From contig OX597818.1 in NCBI GenBank assembly GCA_951406725.2, positions 42,222,001 through 42,286,000 on the forward strand: 64,000 nucleotides of DNA, in the 5' to 3' direction. This document shows positions 21,305 to 64,000 of the stretch, one piece after another; within the stretch, counting starts at the first letter, position 1; each line of letters starts with the position of its first letter. The translations under genes were made by a program, and so were the position numbers. This DNA comes from Octopus vulgaris (Eukaryota). The notes below the pieces were generated by a model, which made no database searches, was not told the origin of the DNA, and saw only the letters and a program-made list of their open reading frames with translations.

Positions 21305-21379
21305 ATGAAGTTATCAATTTTTGTTCATGTAATTCTTGTTCTTCCATTGTTCCTGAATAAAATAGAAGCCAACATGCAG
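21305..21379 (+). CDS. Signal-peptide exon of mosaic SRCR/CTL/kringle/LDLa protein
   Basis: MKLSIFVHVILVLPLFLNKIEA-NMQ has a basic N-terminus, a hydrophobic core and an IEA cleavage-like site. Perfect donor CAG|GTAAGT, phase 0. Confidence 0.75.
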
Positions 21380-21712
21380 GTAAGTGATTGGAAGAATGTA
21401 TACTGGAAGTAAAAATATTATTAGATGTGATGATGATGTTGATGAGGATGATGAGGATGATGAGGATGATGATGATGATGATGTGATTGGTAAATGTCTT
21501 TAGTCAAATGAGATGTCTTTGAATTCCTAATTTCTTCAAAATTGTTTCTTGCTCCATTGTTTATTCTGTTGTATTTCATCACCCTTTCCATTCCGTTTTG
21601 TTTTGCTTTCTCTTTATACAACATTTGAGGAAATAAAATGACAATAAAATATATGAAACATGTACATGCACACACATATTCACACATGACACAAACATAT
21701 ATATATATATGT

Positions 21713-21915
21713 GTGACCTCGTGTGTACCGTTGGCGAATTTTTCCTCTGTCTTCCCTTCTCTGGATCTTTCCTTCTCCGATGTTTCCGACAAAGAGCTCC
21801 GCTCGAAACGTTAAACCCTCTCTCTTTCCTTCTTTCCTGAGCGTCCAATAATACTATATTTGTTCCACGTCCTCGCGTTGTTGTGTTTTTTTGTGTTTTC
21901 TTGTTTGGATTAACT
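21713..21915 (+). mobile_element. Penelope-like solo terminal repeat with degenerate minimal hammerhead
   Basis: GTTT-CCGACAA-AGAGCTCCGCTC-GAAA-CGTT-AAAC, inserted in a TA tract. Homologous to 32357-32565(-). Confidence 0.55.
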
Positions 21916-22067
21916 ATATATATATATATATATATATATATAAATATATATATATATATAAATATATATATATATATAAATATATATATATATATATATA
22001 TATATATATATATATATATATATATATATACACACTCACACACACACATATACATATATACACATAT

Positions 22068-22210
22068 GCTGAGGTGGCCAACGTTAATCGAAAAGTTAAC
22101 TTCGTTAATCATTAATCCGTTAACCAAAAAGTCAACTACGTTAATTGTTAATCTGTTAATTCTTTGAAGATGCAACGGAAGTTAACGTTAATCCGTTAAC
22201 GTTAACTTTT
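22068..22210 (+). mobile_element. DNA transposon terminus with clustered GTTAAC/GTTAAT subterminal repeats (hAT-like)
   Basis: About ten GTTAAY motifs in 140 bp after GAGGTGGCCAAC. No partner end was found. Confidence 0.45.
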
Positions 22211-23287
22211 ATTGAAAAAGGCATACCTACAGTTTAATACCCCACCGACTTTGTCGACTCATAACTTCCTGAAAAATGGATACTTTTTAACGTAACTTTC
22301 ACCAAACAATCGCTTGTATACTGTAGATTGAGTGTATGTAAAGATTTGTTGGAAAAGTTTTCTCGAGGGTTTCGGGAGAGGGGTTTCGAAAAATTCACAG
22401 GACCCGACATTTCCTCCTCATAACTTTCTGGAAAACAGTTATTTTTTAATGAAATTTCATACAAATACCTTTCAAACGGTATAGATTACAAAAGAAATTT
22501 GTAGGCAAAATCTTTGGCAGGGATGAGGGGAGTTTCTGGGAAACGGTGTTTCGGATCAGATGGCCCACGTAAGTTGGAATTTCCTCGTTTTGACGGACAT
22601 TTTTTCCAATGATTTTCACCAAAGTCTTCAGAATGATGGGAGGCATCATTTCACGATAAAAAAGAAAAAAGTTTGAAAAGGTTTTCACTCCCGCCATCCC
22701 ATCACCACCCCAGTACGAAACGATTTCGGTCTTTTTTCTTTTTTCACTACACACTTAAAACCTGTGGAAGAAGCATTTTCAGTTTTAAAAAAAATTCAGA
22801 GAAAAGATGTATGATTTAAGGGAGATCTGGCTGTTGTTTCTACCACATCCCTAAACCTCCCTCCTCGTTTCTTTCTCACTCACACATCTATTGATATTTT
22901 TCATTATTTTTTCCCCATAAACAAATTTTATGGAATGATGATGTTATATGTGTGTGCAAGAAAAAAAAAGCCTAAAAATAGTTTTAATGTTCATATTAAT
23001 CTGCCAAATGTAATGCATATTTGTTCAGGTCCAAGAGGGGTAACCACAATATTTGCTTGTAACTTTGTAAAATTTTTACGTACAGATTGGAAACTTTGTC
23101 AGTGGGTGCTTTATATACCACTGGTTTATTGTTATGTAACTTTAGCTGATCTTGCTGAGTAAATTTGACTTTTATGGCTAGGTAAATTTAATTAACAGAT
23201 GTAAAAGCTATAATATTACGGAAAAACACTAAAATTGAAATTCTTAATGCATCTTGCTTGTTTGATTTGTTACTAAAATTATCTTAG

Positions 23288-23326
23288 ATGGCAACCGACA
23301 AAATTTTTGCCACTTTTCAAGATGAG
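23288..23326 (+). CDS. Candidate 39-nt exon preceding SRCR domain
   Basis: ACTAA branch point and TCTTAG acceptor, donor AG|GTACAT. The phase 2-2 reading WQPTKFLPLFKM-R joins in frame to LVGNS, giving the typical SRCR start xRLVG. Confidence 0.5.
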
Positions 23327-61211: not shown

Positions 61212-61835
61212 GTAAGTATTTTAAAAACAATTTAAACACCAAATGAAGAAAATCAGGCAATTATTAGTGTTTAAATGAAAACTTCAACAGTAACAGATCA
61301 TTATAAGGTGAAATATAAATCAGTTTGTAGTGTAAATATTTCCTGCAAAACTTAATTTGACTGTAAAATTAATGAGCTAAAATAAAGGACAGATTTTACA
61401 TGTGGAACTTGATTTAAAATCAGCTACAGAAGATTATAAATTCTTTGAAATTAAATTTGGATTTAGATGAAGTTTCTTACTGCTAAACTGCTTCAAAAAC
61501 AGATATTATTGTTTTCTGGTTTCTTTCTATCACTTTATGTTGCATTTTGTGCACATAATTTCTTACTTTCTGGACATCAGTCTTACTAAATTAAGACATT
61601 TCTCTATGACTCCTGGTGCCACATAAAAAGCACCCATGCCAGTATCAAATGACAGCAACCATGCTGGTTCTACATATAAAACACCCAGGTCACTCTGTAA
61701 AGTGGTTGGCATTAGACAGGACATCCAACCATAGAAACTATGCTGAAACAGACAAGTGGAGCCTGGTGCAGCTCCCTGGGTGGCCAGCTCCTGTCAAACT
61801 GTGCAACCCATGCTAACACGGAAGACAGATGTTAA

Positions 61836-62020
61836 ATGATGATAATGATGATGATGGTGGTGATGGTGGTGGTGGTGATGGTGGTGGTGGTGGTGGTGTT
61901 GGTGGTGTTGGTGGTGGTGGTTGTGGTGGTGGTGGTGGTGGTGGTGGTGGTGGTGGTGGTGGTGGTGGTGGTGGTGGTGGTGGTGGTGGTGGTGTTGGTG
62001 GTGGTGGTTGTGATGAAGAT
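61836..62020. repeat. (GGT)n microsatellite grown from RTE tail
   Basis: GAT-to-GGT triplet run follows GATGTTAAAT. Confidence 0.9.
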
Positions 62021-62335
62021 TATGTTTTAATACAGAATTATTAACTTGGATTACATTACTCAAATGCAAGGTAATAATGGGAGTCAATATGTGAGCAAAT
62101 ACAACGCAATATATACTCAAGAAATACACGCTGATTAATAAAAAAAGCGAAACATAAAGATCCAAGTACAAAAAATATCATGCCACTTACGAAACAAACC
62201 AGTATGCAAATTAGAAGGCAGTCAAAAGTTGAATTTAAAAGGACACGAGGGGAACACACAAAATAAAGTCGTTAAACTTAGTTCAATACTTAGCCAGAAC
62301 ATGGAAATATTAGAATTAAATTAGAGCAATATAAC

Positions 62336-62636
62336 AATGATGATACTGGATAATGATGATGATTATGATGATGATGACGATGACGATGATGACGATGATG
62401 ACGATGATGATAATTATGATGATGATGATGATGACGACATTGCCGCCGCCGCCGATGATGATGATGTTGATGACAACGACAATGATGATGATGATGGTGA
62501 CGATGATGATGTCAATGACGATGATGATGATGACGATGATGTTGATGATAATGATGATGATGATGATGATGATGACGATGATGATGATGATGATGACGAT
62601 GACGGTGATGATGATGACGACGATGATGATGATGAT
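62336..62636. repeat. Imperfect (GAT/GAC)n microsatellite
   Basis: ~300-bp triplet tract immediately before the duplication junction. Confidence 0.9.
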
Positions 62637-62885
62637 TATTTTAACTTCATCCCACAGATTATTTTAACTTCATCCTGACATCAGCCAATGCTGCAATCTC
62701 ACTTTAGTTGCTGGGTCTTCTCAATCACTGCATATTTCCAAAGGTCTCAGTCTCCTGTCATTGCCTCTGTGAGGCCCAATGTTCGTAGGTCATGCTTCAC
62801 CACCTCATCATGCTTCACCACGTGAATCATGACCTTCAAATATTGGGCCTCACATGTTCTTCATGTGATTCATTAATGCTTTCAG

Positions 62886-63004
62886 ATTGTTACAGTGGAA
62901 ATGGTGTATCCTACAGAGGGTCTGTATCAGAAACAGACGGAGGAACACCTTGCCTTAAATGGACAGAGAATCCTAAATATAACACAACAAACTCTCCCAA
63001 TGCA
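62886..63004 (+). CDS. Kringle 3, exon A
   Basis: Identical to 56525-56643 including splice sites. The gene continues beyond the window. Confidence 0.85.
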
Positions 63005-64000
63005 GTAAGTTTACTTTGAATTTTAATTGCTTATCTTGACAATGGTTTGAATACATAGTTAGATAATTGATACTGACAATAAAAAAAACTGATATAAATA
63101 ACAACCATTTAGATAATCCACCTCGAATAGCCATAAATTAATTATTGAGAGGAATACGATAAACAAAGGTAATAACTAGTTTATTGATAAACATTCTTAT
63201 CGTTTTCTATAGCATCAGGTAAAACTGTTAGCAATGACCAAGCACTATTAGTTAGTGACATTAGTTATCTGAGATTTTTAATTAAACTGAATCAGTAGCA
63301 GAATTTTATATATTTTGCTCAATCCAATCAAACAAAAATTACAGGTACTCATCAAAATGTGATGAGCTTACAGGTGATTCATGCCCTCCAGATTCAGAAC
63401 AGTAAAAGTGTTTAAAAACTTTAGCAAAAGCCACAAATTTTAGTGAGAACAGGTAAGTCAATTACATCGACGCTAGTGCCCAACTGGTATTTATCTTATC
63501 AACCACCAAGAAGGCAAAGTTGACCTTGGAAGAATTTGAACTCAGAATATAAATCTGGAAGAAATATTGCTGAGCATTTTGTCCAGAGTGCTAATGATTC
63601 TGGCAGATCACAGCCTTTCAGCTCAGTGCAATCAAAAAGAATACATAAGTATTTTAGGTTGCTATGATGAAAGAGAAAATCCATTAGTTTGATTGGATCT
63701 ACTTTTCAATGAAGACTCTTCTCTAAATATTAAATATTCACTTTTTTCTAGCTAAGCTAAATAATGCTCCCTTTTTCTGAATTTAACAAAATTTGTCTAT
63801 ATTAAATTCTGAATTCTTACTTTGTAGTTCCATAGGGGCTTTTGTAATTTTTTTTTCTTTTTATAAGTACTTCTGGTTCCTATGCCAAGGTTATGAATTG
63901 TTTTCTAGATTTTCATCATCATCATTGTCATCTAACATTCATTTTCCATGCTGGCATACGTTCATAGGAGTTGGCAAGGCCAGGGGCTGCATCAGGTTCC

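Follow-up and report, generated by a model that had tools for sequence, protein, structure and literature searches.

Among the closest described systems are the Tequila-type proteins of arthropods, i.e., Tequila/Graal (Drosophila CG4821), Anopheles SP22D/Scrasp1, honey bee SP23 (domain string 4CBD-SR-Clect-KR-LDLA-PA-2LDLA-SP; PMC1761132) and Tenebrio SerP55. These resemble the octopus gene analyzed here in the order SRCR, C-type lectin, kringle, LDLa, PAN and LDLa, followed by SRCR/LDLa modules and a trypsin domain, but carry chitin-binding domains, of which the octopus gene has none. Tenebrio SerP55 (Tequila; CBM3, LDL3, SRCR2, PAN) displays an H-D-S triad with D-G-G, unlike the octopus copy. 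Tequila and Scrasp1 are fat-body proteins that increase on infection (PMC2685406; PMC11050137). Fly Tequila nulls were reported free of phenotype, and a Daphnia Tequila co-orthologue likewise lacks chitin-binding domains. C. elegans SVH-1 and vertebrate HGF/MSP have kringle, PAN-related and serine-protease-fold domains in common with the octopus gene. According to PMC11305532, HGF is a dead-protease ligand with Asp-Gln-Tyr in place of the triad, and SVH-1, whose triad is intact, signals through SVH-2/Met with no need for protease activity; H755Y, not S898F, yielded its growth-factor form, and the His-to-Tyr change is required for signalling, whereas the octopus copy keeps its His. In amphioxus, Table 2 of PMC6337849 includes two entries among SRCR-kringle-LDLa(-PAN)-trypsin proteins whose trypsin is predicted to be non-functional; likened by description only, these share a similar domain set with the octopus gene but belong to a separate lineage and have no lectin listed in that table.

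The window, i.e., the whole stretch of Octopus vulgaris DNA analyzed here, spans 64,000 nucleotides. A preliminary description had proposed that it encodes a secreted protein whose twelve domain exons splice in frame from SRCR to kringle 3, and this was borne out: these exons follow one another on the + strand with AG/GT ends and agreeing phases and, joined to a signal peptide exon and a 62-nt linker, the 14 exons yield 1755 nt, i.e., 585 in-frame codons with no stop (Table 1). Since boundaries were placed manually with the reading frame in view, phase agreement alone is weak support. However, the spliced product is identical to the start of O. vulgaris CAI9722759.1 at 585/585 residues, this annotation probably deriving from the same assembly, and to its O. 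sinensis orthologue at 528/545.

Table 1 Features of the octopus gene within the 64-kb window.
Feature	Position	Strand	Evidence and remarks
Exon 1 coding part, signal peptide (25 aa)	21305..21379	+	ATG at 21305; donor phase 0; residues 1-25 of P0017
Exon 2, short linker, 62 nt	26396..26457	+	Basic Cys repeats, present in the active paralogue, are missing from this gene
SRCR1, first half	28389..28523	+	Pfam SRCR E=1.7e-11
SRCR1, second half	33247..33422	+	Pfam SRCR E=3.3e-8
C-type lectin-like exon a	37123..37293	+	Pfam Lectin_C E=5e-4, below cut-off; 7 residues unlike O. sinensis orthologue
C-type lectin-like exon b	40967..41062	+	In-frame splicing; tblastn with family proteins
C-type lectin-like exon c	42427..42609	+	In-frame splicing; tblastn with family proteins; EPS and WKT
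Kringle 1, exon a	46335..46453	+	Pfam Kringle E=1.8e-7
Kringle 1, exon b and Thr-rich linker	49759..49942	+	Pfam Kringle E=9e-11
LDLa 1, exon a (61 nt)	53639..53699	+	In-frame splicing; tblastn with family proteins
LDLa 1, exon b	54285..54355	+	Pfam Ldl_recept_a E=2.7e-7; junction to kringle 2a in X17 record 9
Kringle 2, exon a	56525..56643	+	Pfam Kringle, below cut-off; X17 contig
Kringle 2, exon b and Thr-rich linker	61028..61211	+	Pfam Kringle E=4e-10
Kringle 3a exon	62886..63004	+	Identical in sequence to kringle 2a; first half only of kringle 3 in window
Near-identical repeat of 56314-57641 (offset 6361 nt)	62675..64000	+	Carries kringle 3a

Scanned exon by exon, 9 of 13 exons matched Pfam (SRCR 2, Kringle 5, LDLa 1 and Lectin_C 1, the last below cut-off), the 19-aa LDLa-a exon being too short for the scan; the three 39-aa kringle first halves also scored below cut-off. 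That transcripts join these exons is supported at one junction: in run X17, taken by guess to be RNA, a contig has 54285-54355 spliced straight to 56525-56632. It thus matches the LDLa-to-kringle-2 junction of the copy in the window, a junction that the one-kringle active-type models lack. No exon junction occurred among the pieces listed for run X15 (also RNA by guess). Secretion is suggested by hydropathy only, with an N-terminal window of 1.8 (in P0017, the most hydrophobic 19-aa window begins at residue 3) and later windows ≤1.42. Using tblastn with six family proteins, we found no paralogue exons at positions 1-21,280 and no PAN or trypsin exon in the 64-kb window. Nor did intron 1, intron 2 or the upstream DNA contain any trace of the exon for the basic Cys repeats, and no upstream exon in the window resembled the start of the active paralogue.

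Beyond the window, the full models continue as LDLa(n)-PAN-LDLa-SRCR-LDLa-SRCR-trypsin, so that the downstream domains anticipated in the preliminary description are present and the SRCR-lectin-kringle-LDLa-PAN-LDLa order ends in SRCR/LDLa modules and a trypsin-fold domain, with up to 11 LDLa and 2-3 kringles tallied for the gene. PAN was assigned through alignment to a Pfam PAN_1 match in chiton P0009; in whole P0017, neither PAN nor Lectin_C was called at E≤0.01. The likeness to Tequila/Sp22D noted earlier therefore holds for domain order, which is what it consists of here, as our trees contain no arthropod Tequila sequences. An octopus origin and a secretion signal were likewise supported. 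The reported lack of chitin-binding repeats was also upheld, none appearing in the Pfam scan of P0017, where ~45 residues precede SRCR1. A tentative pointer to arthropod relatives is an arthropod chitin-binding cluster in the Atlas, whose score to the chiton protein was 0.87.

The same domain core occurs in chiton, gastropods and bivalves, oysters also having 2-3 kringles, and because the layout is found across molluscs we rejected the idea of a lineage-specific, cephalopod architecture. The core is that of the molluscan "svh-1-like" or "neurotrypsin-like" mosaic proteases (chiton P0009, Argonauta GAB1602923.1, Octopus CAI9722755.1 and XP_029655255.1, cuttlefish CAE1263504/5.1), and the octopus copy nests among them in three trees. 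From its sequence, the gene is classed here as a dead paralogue inside this svh-1-like family, not an enzyme. It is ~90% identical to the active-type Octopus paralogue across most shared domains, but has an Asp for Ser, lacks the coleoid basic Cys repeats and has a kringle 2 added after LDLa 1; its five records hold one of two alternative protease-start exons. Canonical C-type lectins, whose sugar binding is calcium-dependent, carry EPN/QPD and WND motifs. The Octopus lectin domain has EPS and WKT instead (QPS and WND in the chiton), so that pattern recognition through the lectin is not supported. Among the best 120 of 1579 matches to the protease region, mostly TMPRSS9/polyserase, Argonauta provided the only new family member, and an Atlas search with the dead protease domain led to generic trypsin clusters. 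In a lectin-profile search of cluster representatives, where multi-lectin proteins crowded the list, no arthropod or nematode family member was seen among the 15 of 150 listed entries examined, P0202, P0260 and P0287 being of unrelated architecture. A PDB search returned CD163, LRP2, plasminogen and HGF, a likeness of shared domains only.

We then considered the protease end, whose exons lie outside the window, so that its state is known from two gene models and not from the DNA read here. In the models of both O. vulgaris and O. sinensis, GDSGGP is replaced by GDDGGP (Ser195 to Asp), the S1 Asp is an Asn (LNSC), and the furin-type site is lost (KTKY where RTKR); these changes fall in homologous alignment columns, as does a gap of one residue that follows the activation site. 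Among the 45 family records whose protease end is complete, position 195 is Ser in 39, Asp in 5 and Ile in 1, the Asp records all being this gene in two species and the Ile record a cuttlefish paralogue. With Ser195 and the S1 Asp missing in 5/5 records of the gene, the haemolymph protease envisaged at first is not supported. His57 (AAHC), Asp102 and all 10 protease-region Cys are retained, and the protease fold probably persists for this reason. The reading frame is open over 1450-1700 aa in the models of both species, and two assemblies and annotation sets have the identical dead end behind this exact N-terminus. Lacking the catalytic Ser, the product is likely a secreted pseudo-protease, binding its partners without cleaving them. 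A-to-I editing was considered as a way to restore the nucleophile and rejected, since by the genetic code it would turn the Asp codon into one for Gly and not for Ser. Chimeric models arise readily at this locus, O. sinensis XP_036359159.1 (P0015) combining active-type ends with a dead-type middle, and the O. sinensis models display a divergent C-terminal tail that looks like a late frameshift.

In the protease tree, the dead copies formed one group (100/100) that paired with the active Octopus copies (96/96), Argonauta lying outside; by this placement the dead gene arose in Octopus, after the Argonauta split, through duplication of an active-type svh-1-like gene. Between the two species, the dead copies have diverged no more than the active ones: they differed from each other at 2/285 positions of the LDLa-SRCR block (active copies, 4/285) and at 0/99 positions of the activation linker and first protease exon. 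Derived changes were more numerous in the dead than in the active copies, both in the protease and linker (31 vs 9, p=7e-4) and in the non-catalytic part (31 vs 15, p=0.026), with no difference in acceleration between the two regions (Fisher p=0.34). In cuttlefish, CAE1270053.1, a single annotation record, displays GDIGEP (Ser to Ile) and a degenerate activation site; it lacks the same N-terminal basic repeats, has four tandem LDLa and no kringle, and groups with the active cuttlefish gene (99). As a single origin of the octopus and cuttlefish dead copies was rejected (p-AU 6.7e-5), the cuttlefish inactivation appears to be independent of the octopus one.

The claim of kringles following the LDLa held for kringle 2, with its Pfam matches and the X17 junction, while kringle 3 is tentative. 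The kringle 2 unit arose recently, by a phase 1-1 duplication that took in the kringle 1 module and its flanking intron DNA: exon and intron are each 95% identical between the two units, the second exons differ at 5/184 nt, and codon differences comprise 7 non-synonymous and 2 synonymous changes. Kringle 3 sits in the terminal repeat, whose alignment to 56314-57641 shows 1 substitution and 1 gap in 1326 bases (99.9% identical), and is missing from the four full O. sinensis models of the locus; it may reflect either a genuine duplication, recent and private, or a repeat created by the assembly. From the raw DNA runs X22 and X23, 43 and 13 reads fell on 53560-60280, a stretch that ends before the 62674/62675 junction; in either run 7 of 30 bins had any depth, and almost all of it lay on interspersed repeats.

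Building on the directly observed exon chain, domain order, single splice junction, tree position and, in both species' models, Ser-to-Asp and S1 Asp-to-Asn replacements, we lean towards reading the window as the start, 14 coding exons long, of a gene copy that arose in Octopus from a molluscan SRCR-lectin-kringle-LDLa-PAN-trypsin gene; its Ser-to-Asp product would be a secreted, non-cutting pseudo-protease binding partners beside its active-type sister. Under this scenario, a duplication, probably in tandem, would date to the time between the Argonauta split and the divergence of O. vulgaris from O. sinensis; the dead copy would then have lost the N-terminal basic Cys repeats, one alternative protease-start exon, the furin-type site and the nucleophile, while its fold, with 10 Cys, His57 and Asp102 in place, probably persisted. 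Module duplication may have added the second kringle and more LDLa, giving a longer stalk and extra binding sites. Secreted to the haemolymph or extracellular matrix, the protein could hold substrates, surfaces or inhibitors of the active sister uncleaved, thereby modulating the sister in the manner of a decoy or cofactor.

Several of these observations would also suit a recent duplicate that is decaying under relaxed selection while it continues to be transcribed, and in which kringle and LDLa gains are neutral products of unequal crossing-over in a repeat-rich locus. The acceleration extends across the protein with no significant regional focus, so that relaxed constraint fits as well; kringle 2 has diverged about as much as its introns; and the divergent O. 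sinensis tails, the chimeric P0015 and the near-identical kringle 3 repeat all point the same way. We nevertheless consider decay somewhat doubtful, given a frame that stays open and protease Cys that are all retained in two species, several lesions that hit activation and catalytic sites, and a dead paralogue in cuttlefish whose N-terminus has lost the same repeats; the two octopus species are, however, closely related, which leaves little time for decay. Highly unlikely, in our assessment, is an active haemolymph or pattern-recognition protease whose dead end reflects a modelling or assembly error, or whose exons splice to an active-type end. P0015 does join a dead-type middle to an active-type protease end, and Tequila and Scrasp1 are induced by infection (PMC2685406; PMC11050137), but two assemblies and annotation sets agree on the dead end after the same N-terminus, the lesions are many and common to both species, and lectin sugar motifs and chitin-binding domains are missing.

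By analogy with SVH-1, duplication might instead have split a dual role, as protease and Met-type ligand, leaving the dead, kringle-enriched copy as an HGF-like receptor ligand, e.g., in nerve or arm regeneration. The paralogues are annotated as svh-1-like or SVH1, kringle gain accompanied the loss of Ser195, and a nucleophile-less protease fold is shared with HGF; SVH-1 itself signals without protease activity (PMC11305532). Against this, the change that made SVH-1 a growth factor was, in the same paper, H755Y and not S898F, while the dead copy keeps His where signalling SVH-1 has Tyr and HGF has Gln; the cuttlefish dead copy has no kringle, and we found no paper joining "svh-1" and "octopus". 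The domain order of HGF is also unlike that of the dead copy. HGF has PAN before four kringles and no SRCR, lectin or LDLa. We thus regard such a ligand as quite unlikely, and equally improbable the broader proposal that coleoids twice split an ancestral SVH-1/Tequila-type dual protein into an active protease and a dedicated dead-protease signalling ligand, converging on the vertebrate plasminogen/HGF split, in which the octopus copy, with its added kringles, would act as a growth factor in regenerating nerves or arms.

As a mosaic, the gene is unremarkable, since it is annotated and the layout known. Among the papers searched, we found no description of the Ser-less Octopus sister copy or its cuttlefish counterpart, and none naming the six family accessions; the genes may be listed in supplementary proteome tables. 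Recurrent loss of catalysis with the fold kept suggests a non-proteolytic role for this poorly understood family, one apparently worth its own gene, for which the Tequila nulls without phenotype and the protease-independent signalling of SVH-1 (PMC11305532) provide context, and the active and dead octopus pair a natural test. Finally, the database name "atrial natriuretic peptide-converting enzyme-like" needs correction: corin shares LDLa, SRCR and trypsin domains with the octopus gene but is set apart by its frizzled domains and type II membrane anchor. Because neither was seen here, we rejected the name as a best-hit label.

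The gene in the window is real, annotated and of known architecture, and what is new about it would be its loss of catalysis, a state at which coleoids arrived twice while losing domains in parallel. Fragments of SRCR, lectin and kringle domains turned up on the + strand in a six-frame motif scan, and direct reading of the DNA gave 14 exons, all with canonical GT donors and all but the first with AG acceptors. They join in frame into 585 aa with 0 stops, in the order signal peptide, 20-aa linker, SRCR (2 exons), C-type lectin-like domain (3), kringle 1 (2), LDLa (2), kringle 2 (2) and the first half of kringle 3. 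Because exon boundaries were set by hand, external comparisons are the better checks: the chain agrees with O. vulgaris CAI9722759.1 at every one of residues 1-585, it is identical to O. sinensis XP_036359156-8.1 at 528/545 positions, and a 213-nt contig (depth 6.5) from X17, a run presumed to be RNA, connects the complete LDLa-b exon, with 0 mismatches, to kringle 2a, with 1 mismatch. The chain matches the twelve in-frame domain exons from SRCR to kringle 3 of the preliminary description. Scanned singly, 9 of 13 exons had Pfam matches, 4 of these 9 under the curated cut-off. The bases before the ATG hint at a first exon further upstream, but none came up when 1-21300 was searched by pattern.

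Features of the window and their positions
Feature	Position	Observation
Retroelement-like frame	7654-8400 (+)	248-aa stop-free frame, by eye resembling a retroelement reverse-transcriptase tail
N-terminal extension	21290-21304	acceptor-like AG at 21295-21296, then codons matching the paralogue's N-terminal extension
Start codon	21305	ATG
Related fragment	29464-29632	related to the 7654-8400 frame
Lectin exon	37123-37293	carries lectin changes between O. vulgaris and O. sinensis
Lectin exon	42427-42609	carries lectin changes between O. vulgaris and O. sinensis
Related fragment	43466-43737	related to the 7654-8400 frame
Related fragment	45237-45360	related to the 7654-8400 frame
Related fragment	56352-56448	related to the 7654-8400 frame; adjoins the duplication breakpoint
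Repeat tract	62630-62675	19-nt direct repeat and long GAT microsatellite, directly before the kringle 3 segment

The rest of the gene lies beyond the window. By Pfam, the 1714-aa O. vulgaris model holds 3 SRCR, 3 kringle, 11 LDLa and a trypsin domain (E=3e-57), to which alignment with a chiton family protein adds a PAN-like domain; hydropathy shows a signal-like window only at the N-terminus. The proposed Tequila/Sp22D-type domain order holds: the full models share the layout of bee SP23, which PMC1761132 describes as most similar to SP22D and as resembling Tequila. Chitin-binding domains, however, occur in SP23 only, and the Pfam scan of the full octopus model bore out their reported absence; despite the same build, the octopus gene models lack two features of Tequila/SP22D, the chitin-binding domains and the intact catalytic triad. 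The SRCR-lectin-kringle-LDLa-PAN-trypsin core also occurs in chiton, limpet, snails, sea slugs, oysters (with 2-3 kringles), clams, Argonauta and cuttlefish, so the architecture is not cephalopod-specific and the suggested lineage-specific arrangement falls away. In the Atlas protein-cluster resource, the clusters nearest the chiton protein were LDLa-SRCR-trypsin (0.96), with Nematoda the commonest phylum among the 4-9 members with a record; an arthropod chitin-binding cluster, a lead only, scored 0.87. We file the octopus gene as a putative dead paralogue within the molluscan svh-1-like family. The database name corin was rejected, as frizzled domains and membrane anchor are both missing. Two CUB-rich hemichordate "cubilin-like" proteins (P0260, P0287) have lectin domains with a WFPGW-type signature, as in the svh-1-like family.

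The protease end is predicted from gene models to be catalytically dead. Its His57 and Asp102 motifs and 10/10 protease-region cysteines are kept, but GDSGGP has become GDDGGP and the S1 Asp has become Asn, as found in 5/5 records of this gene in two species. In these models, the expected downstream protease is present as a trypsin fold and predicted non-catalytic. The furin-type RTKR of the active paralogue and Argonauta reads KTKY, and the alignment lacks 1 residue right after the activation site. Among the 45 family records whose protease end is complete (excluding, e.g., P0004, P0008, P0143, P0145, P0147, P0148, P0155 and P0246), the nucleophile is Ser in 39, Asp in 5 and Ile in 1, all 5 Asp records being the dead Octopus gene in two species. 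Three O. sinensis models of the dead copy (P0001, P0013, P0014) end in a short divergent tail that replaces the last helix in the pattern of a one-base frameshift, either an assembly error or a real lesion.

The protease tree unites the dead copies (100/100) and makes them the sister group of the active Octopus copies (96/96); Argonauta, with Ser and a single kringle, falls outside both. A PAN-SRCR tree agrees (93/86). Accession or locus numbers of the active paralogue (CAI9722755/6.1; O. sinensis XP_029655255.1 and LOC115211767) neighbor those of the dead copy, and the contigs of the two are equally long, which suggests a tandem pair; no part of the active paralogue was found within the 64-kb window. 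With Argonauta as reference, derived changes in linker and protease number 31 in the dead copy vs 9 in its sister (p=7e-4), and those in the rest of the protein 31 vs 15 (p=0.026); the two regions show no difference (p=0.34). O. vulgaris and O. sinensis conserve both genes about equally (2/285 differences in the dead, 4/285 in the active), with the exception of the lectin domain (11/150 vs 1/150), where O. vulgaris may have gone through a burst of change or O. sinensis through gene conversion. At 10 of these 11 sites, the residue of the O. sinensis dead copy is that of the active paralogue, and O. bimaculoides agrees with O. sinensis at most of them. Another O. sinensis model, XP_036359159.1, matches the active paralogue at its ends (0-1 differences) and is identical to the dead copy from PAN to SRCR3, with kringle 2 present; it may be an unequal crossover product or a misassembly.

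In the cuttlefish Acanthosepion pharaonis, an active-type SVH1 gene is likewise accompanied by another model, CAE1270053.1, with signal peptide, SRCR, lectin, four LDLa, SRCR and a protease fold bearing GDIGEP, and SFGG at the activation site. This single record, for which we saw no transcript support, shares 89% of its first 300 residues with the active cuttlefish gene and groups with it (support 99); forcing the dead copies together in a quick tree cost 65 log-likelihood units (p-AU 6.7e-5). Gene conversion within species could also group paralogues. Nevertheless, the octopus and cuttlefish dead genes differ in their substitutions and in their alternative protease-start exons, which favors two origins, with one annotation record on the cuttlefish side. 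Active-type genes show two forms of the activation linker and His-bearing protease start (P0019 vs P0023/P0020 in Octopus; P0301 vs P0302 in cuttlefish), both conserved between Octopus and cuttlefish, that resemble mutually exclusive exons; of these two types, one is carried by the dead copy of octopus and the other by that of cuttlefish. Both dead genes lack the N-terminal basic Cys repeats, present in 2 copies in active octopod and 4 matched copies in active cuttlefish proteins and absent from the chiton. This short two-Cys repeat precedes SRCR1 in active coleoid proteins (P0020 residues 30-70, P0047 1-40, P0301 N-terminus), and no Pfam family matched it in P0020 or P0047. Dead forms of the wider architecture have precedent in amphioxus proteins of like make-up, whose trypsin domains PMC6337849 lists as predicted non-functional.

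Given these lesions and trees, drawn from gene models, we lean slightly toward a secreted pseudo-protease. Such a protein would form no acyl-enzyme, would probably keep its fold, and could bind the active sister's partners through its SRCR, lectin-like, kringle, LDLa and PAN modules, thereby acting as decoy or cofactor. Decay of a young duplicate, a lesser but appreciable possibility, would fit the acceleration across the whole protein, the near-neutral kringle 2 divergence, and the chimeric model and divergent tail in O. sinensis.

An HGF-like ligand seems unlikely: SVH-1 does signal without protease activity, but in PMC11305532 the signaling form came from H755Y, not S898F. The octopus copy keeps its His, and kringles are missing from the cuttlefish dead copy. 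Most improbable is an active immune protease, which requires model errors in both species; the lectin domain, moreover, lacks the canonical sugar-binding motifs, which also counts against the pattern-recognition role first proposed. Fly Tequila itself is abundant in larval haemolymph and infection-induced, with a null reported to lack a phenotype (PMC11050137, PMC2685406). Searches of the literature (few subscription journals, no supplements) returned no mention of the gene accessions, no joint mention of svh-1 and octopus, and nothing on this gene more widely, nor do the available parts of PMC10855680 and PMC11172050 cover it.

As for the extra kringles noted after the LDLa, the second stands and the third is less certain. 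Kringle 2 is a young copy of the kringle 1 module together with the adjoining intron DNA (identity 95% and 97% in the exons and 91-98% in the flanks), with 7 non-synonymous and 2 synonymous codon differences, i.e., near-neutral divergence; since the module is phase 1 at both start and end, its insertion stays in frame. Each of the 4 full O. sinensis models for this locus contains two kringles, and O. vulgaris is annotated with isoforms both with and without kringle 3. The kringle 3a segment follows its template at a distance of 6361 nt downstream; over 1326 bases, the two are separated by 1 substitution and 1 gap, and the join shows no gap and no homology. The copies look too similar to be two alleles, and a very recent duplication and an assembler repeat are about equally probable. 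Elsewhere in the svh-1-like family, a Logan record (P0223) and a Dreissena protein (P0308) have additional kringles inserted after the last SRCR and before the protease, so the family has gained kringles repeatedly and at more than one place.
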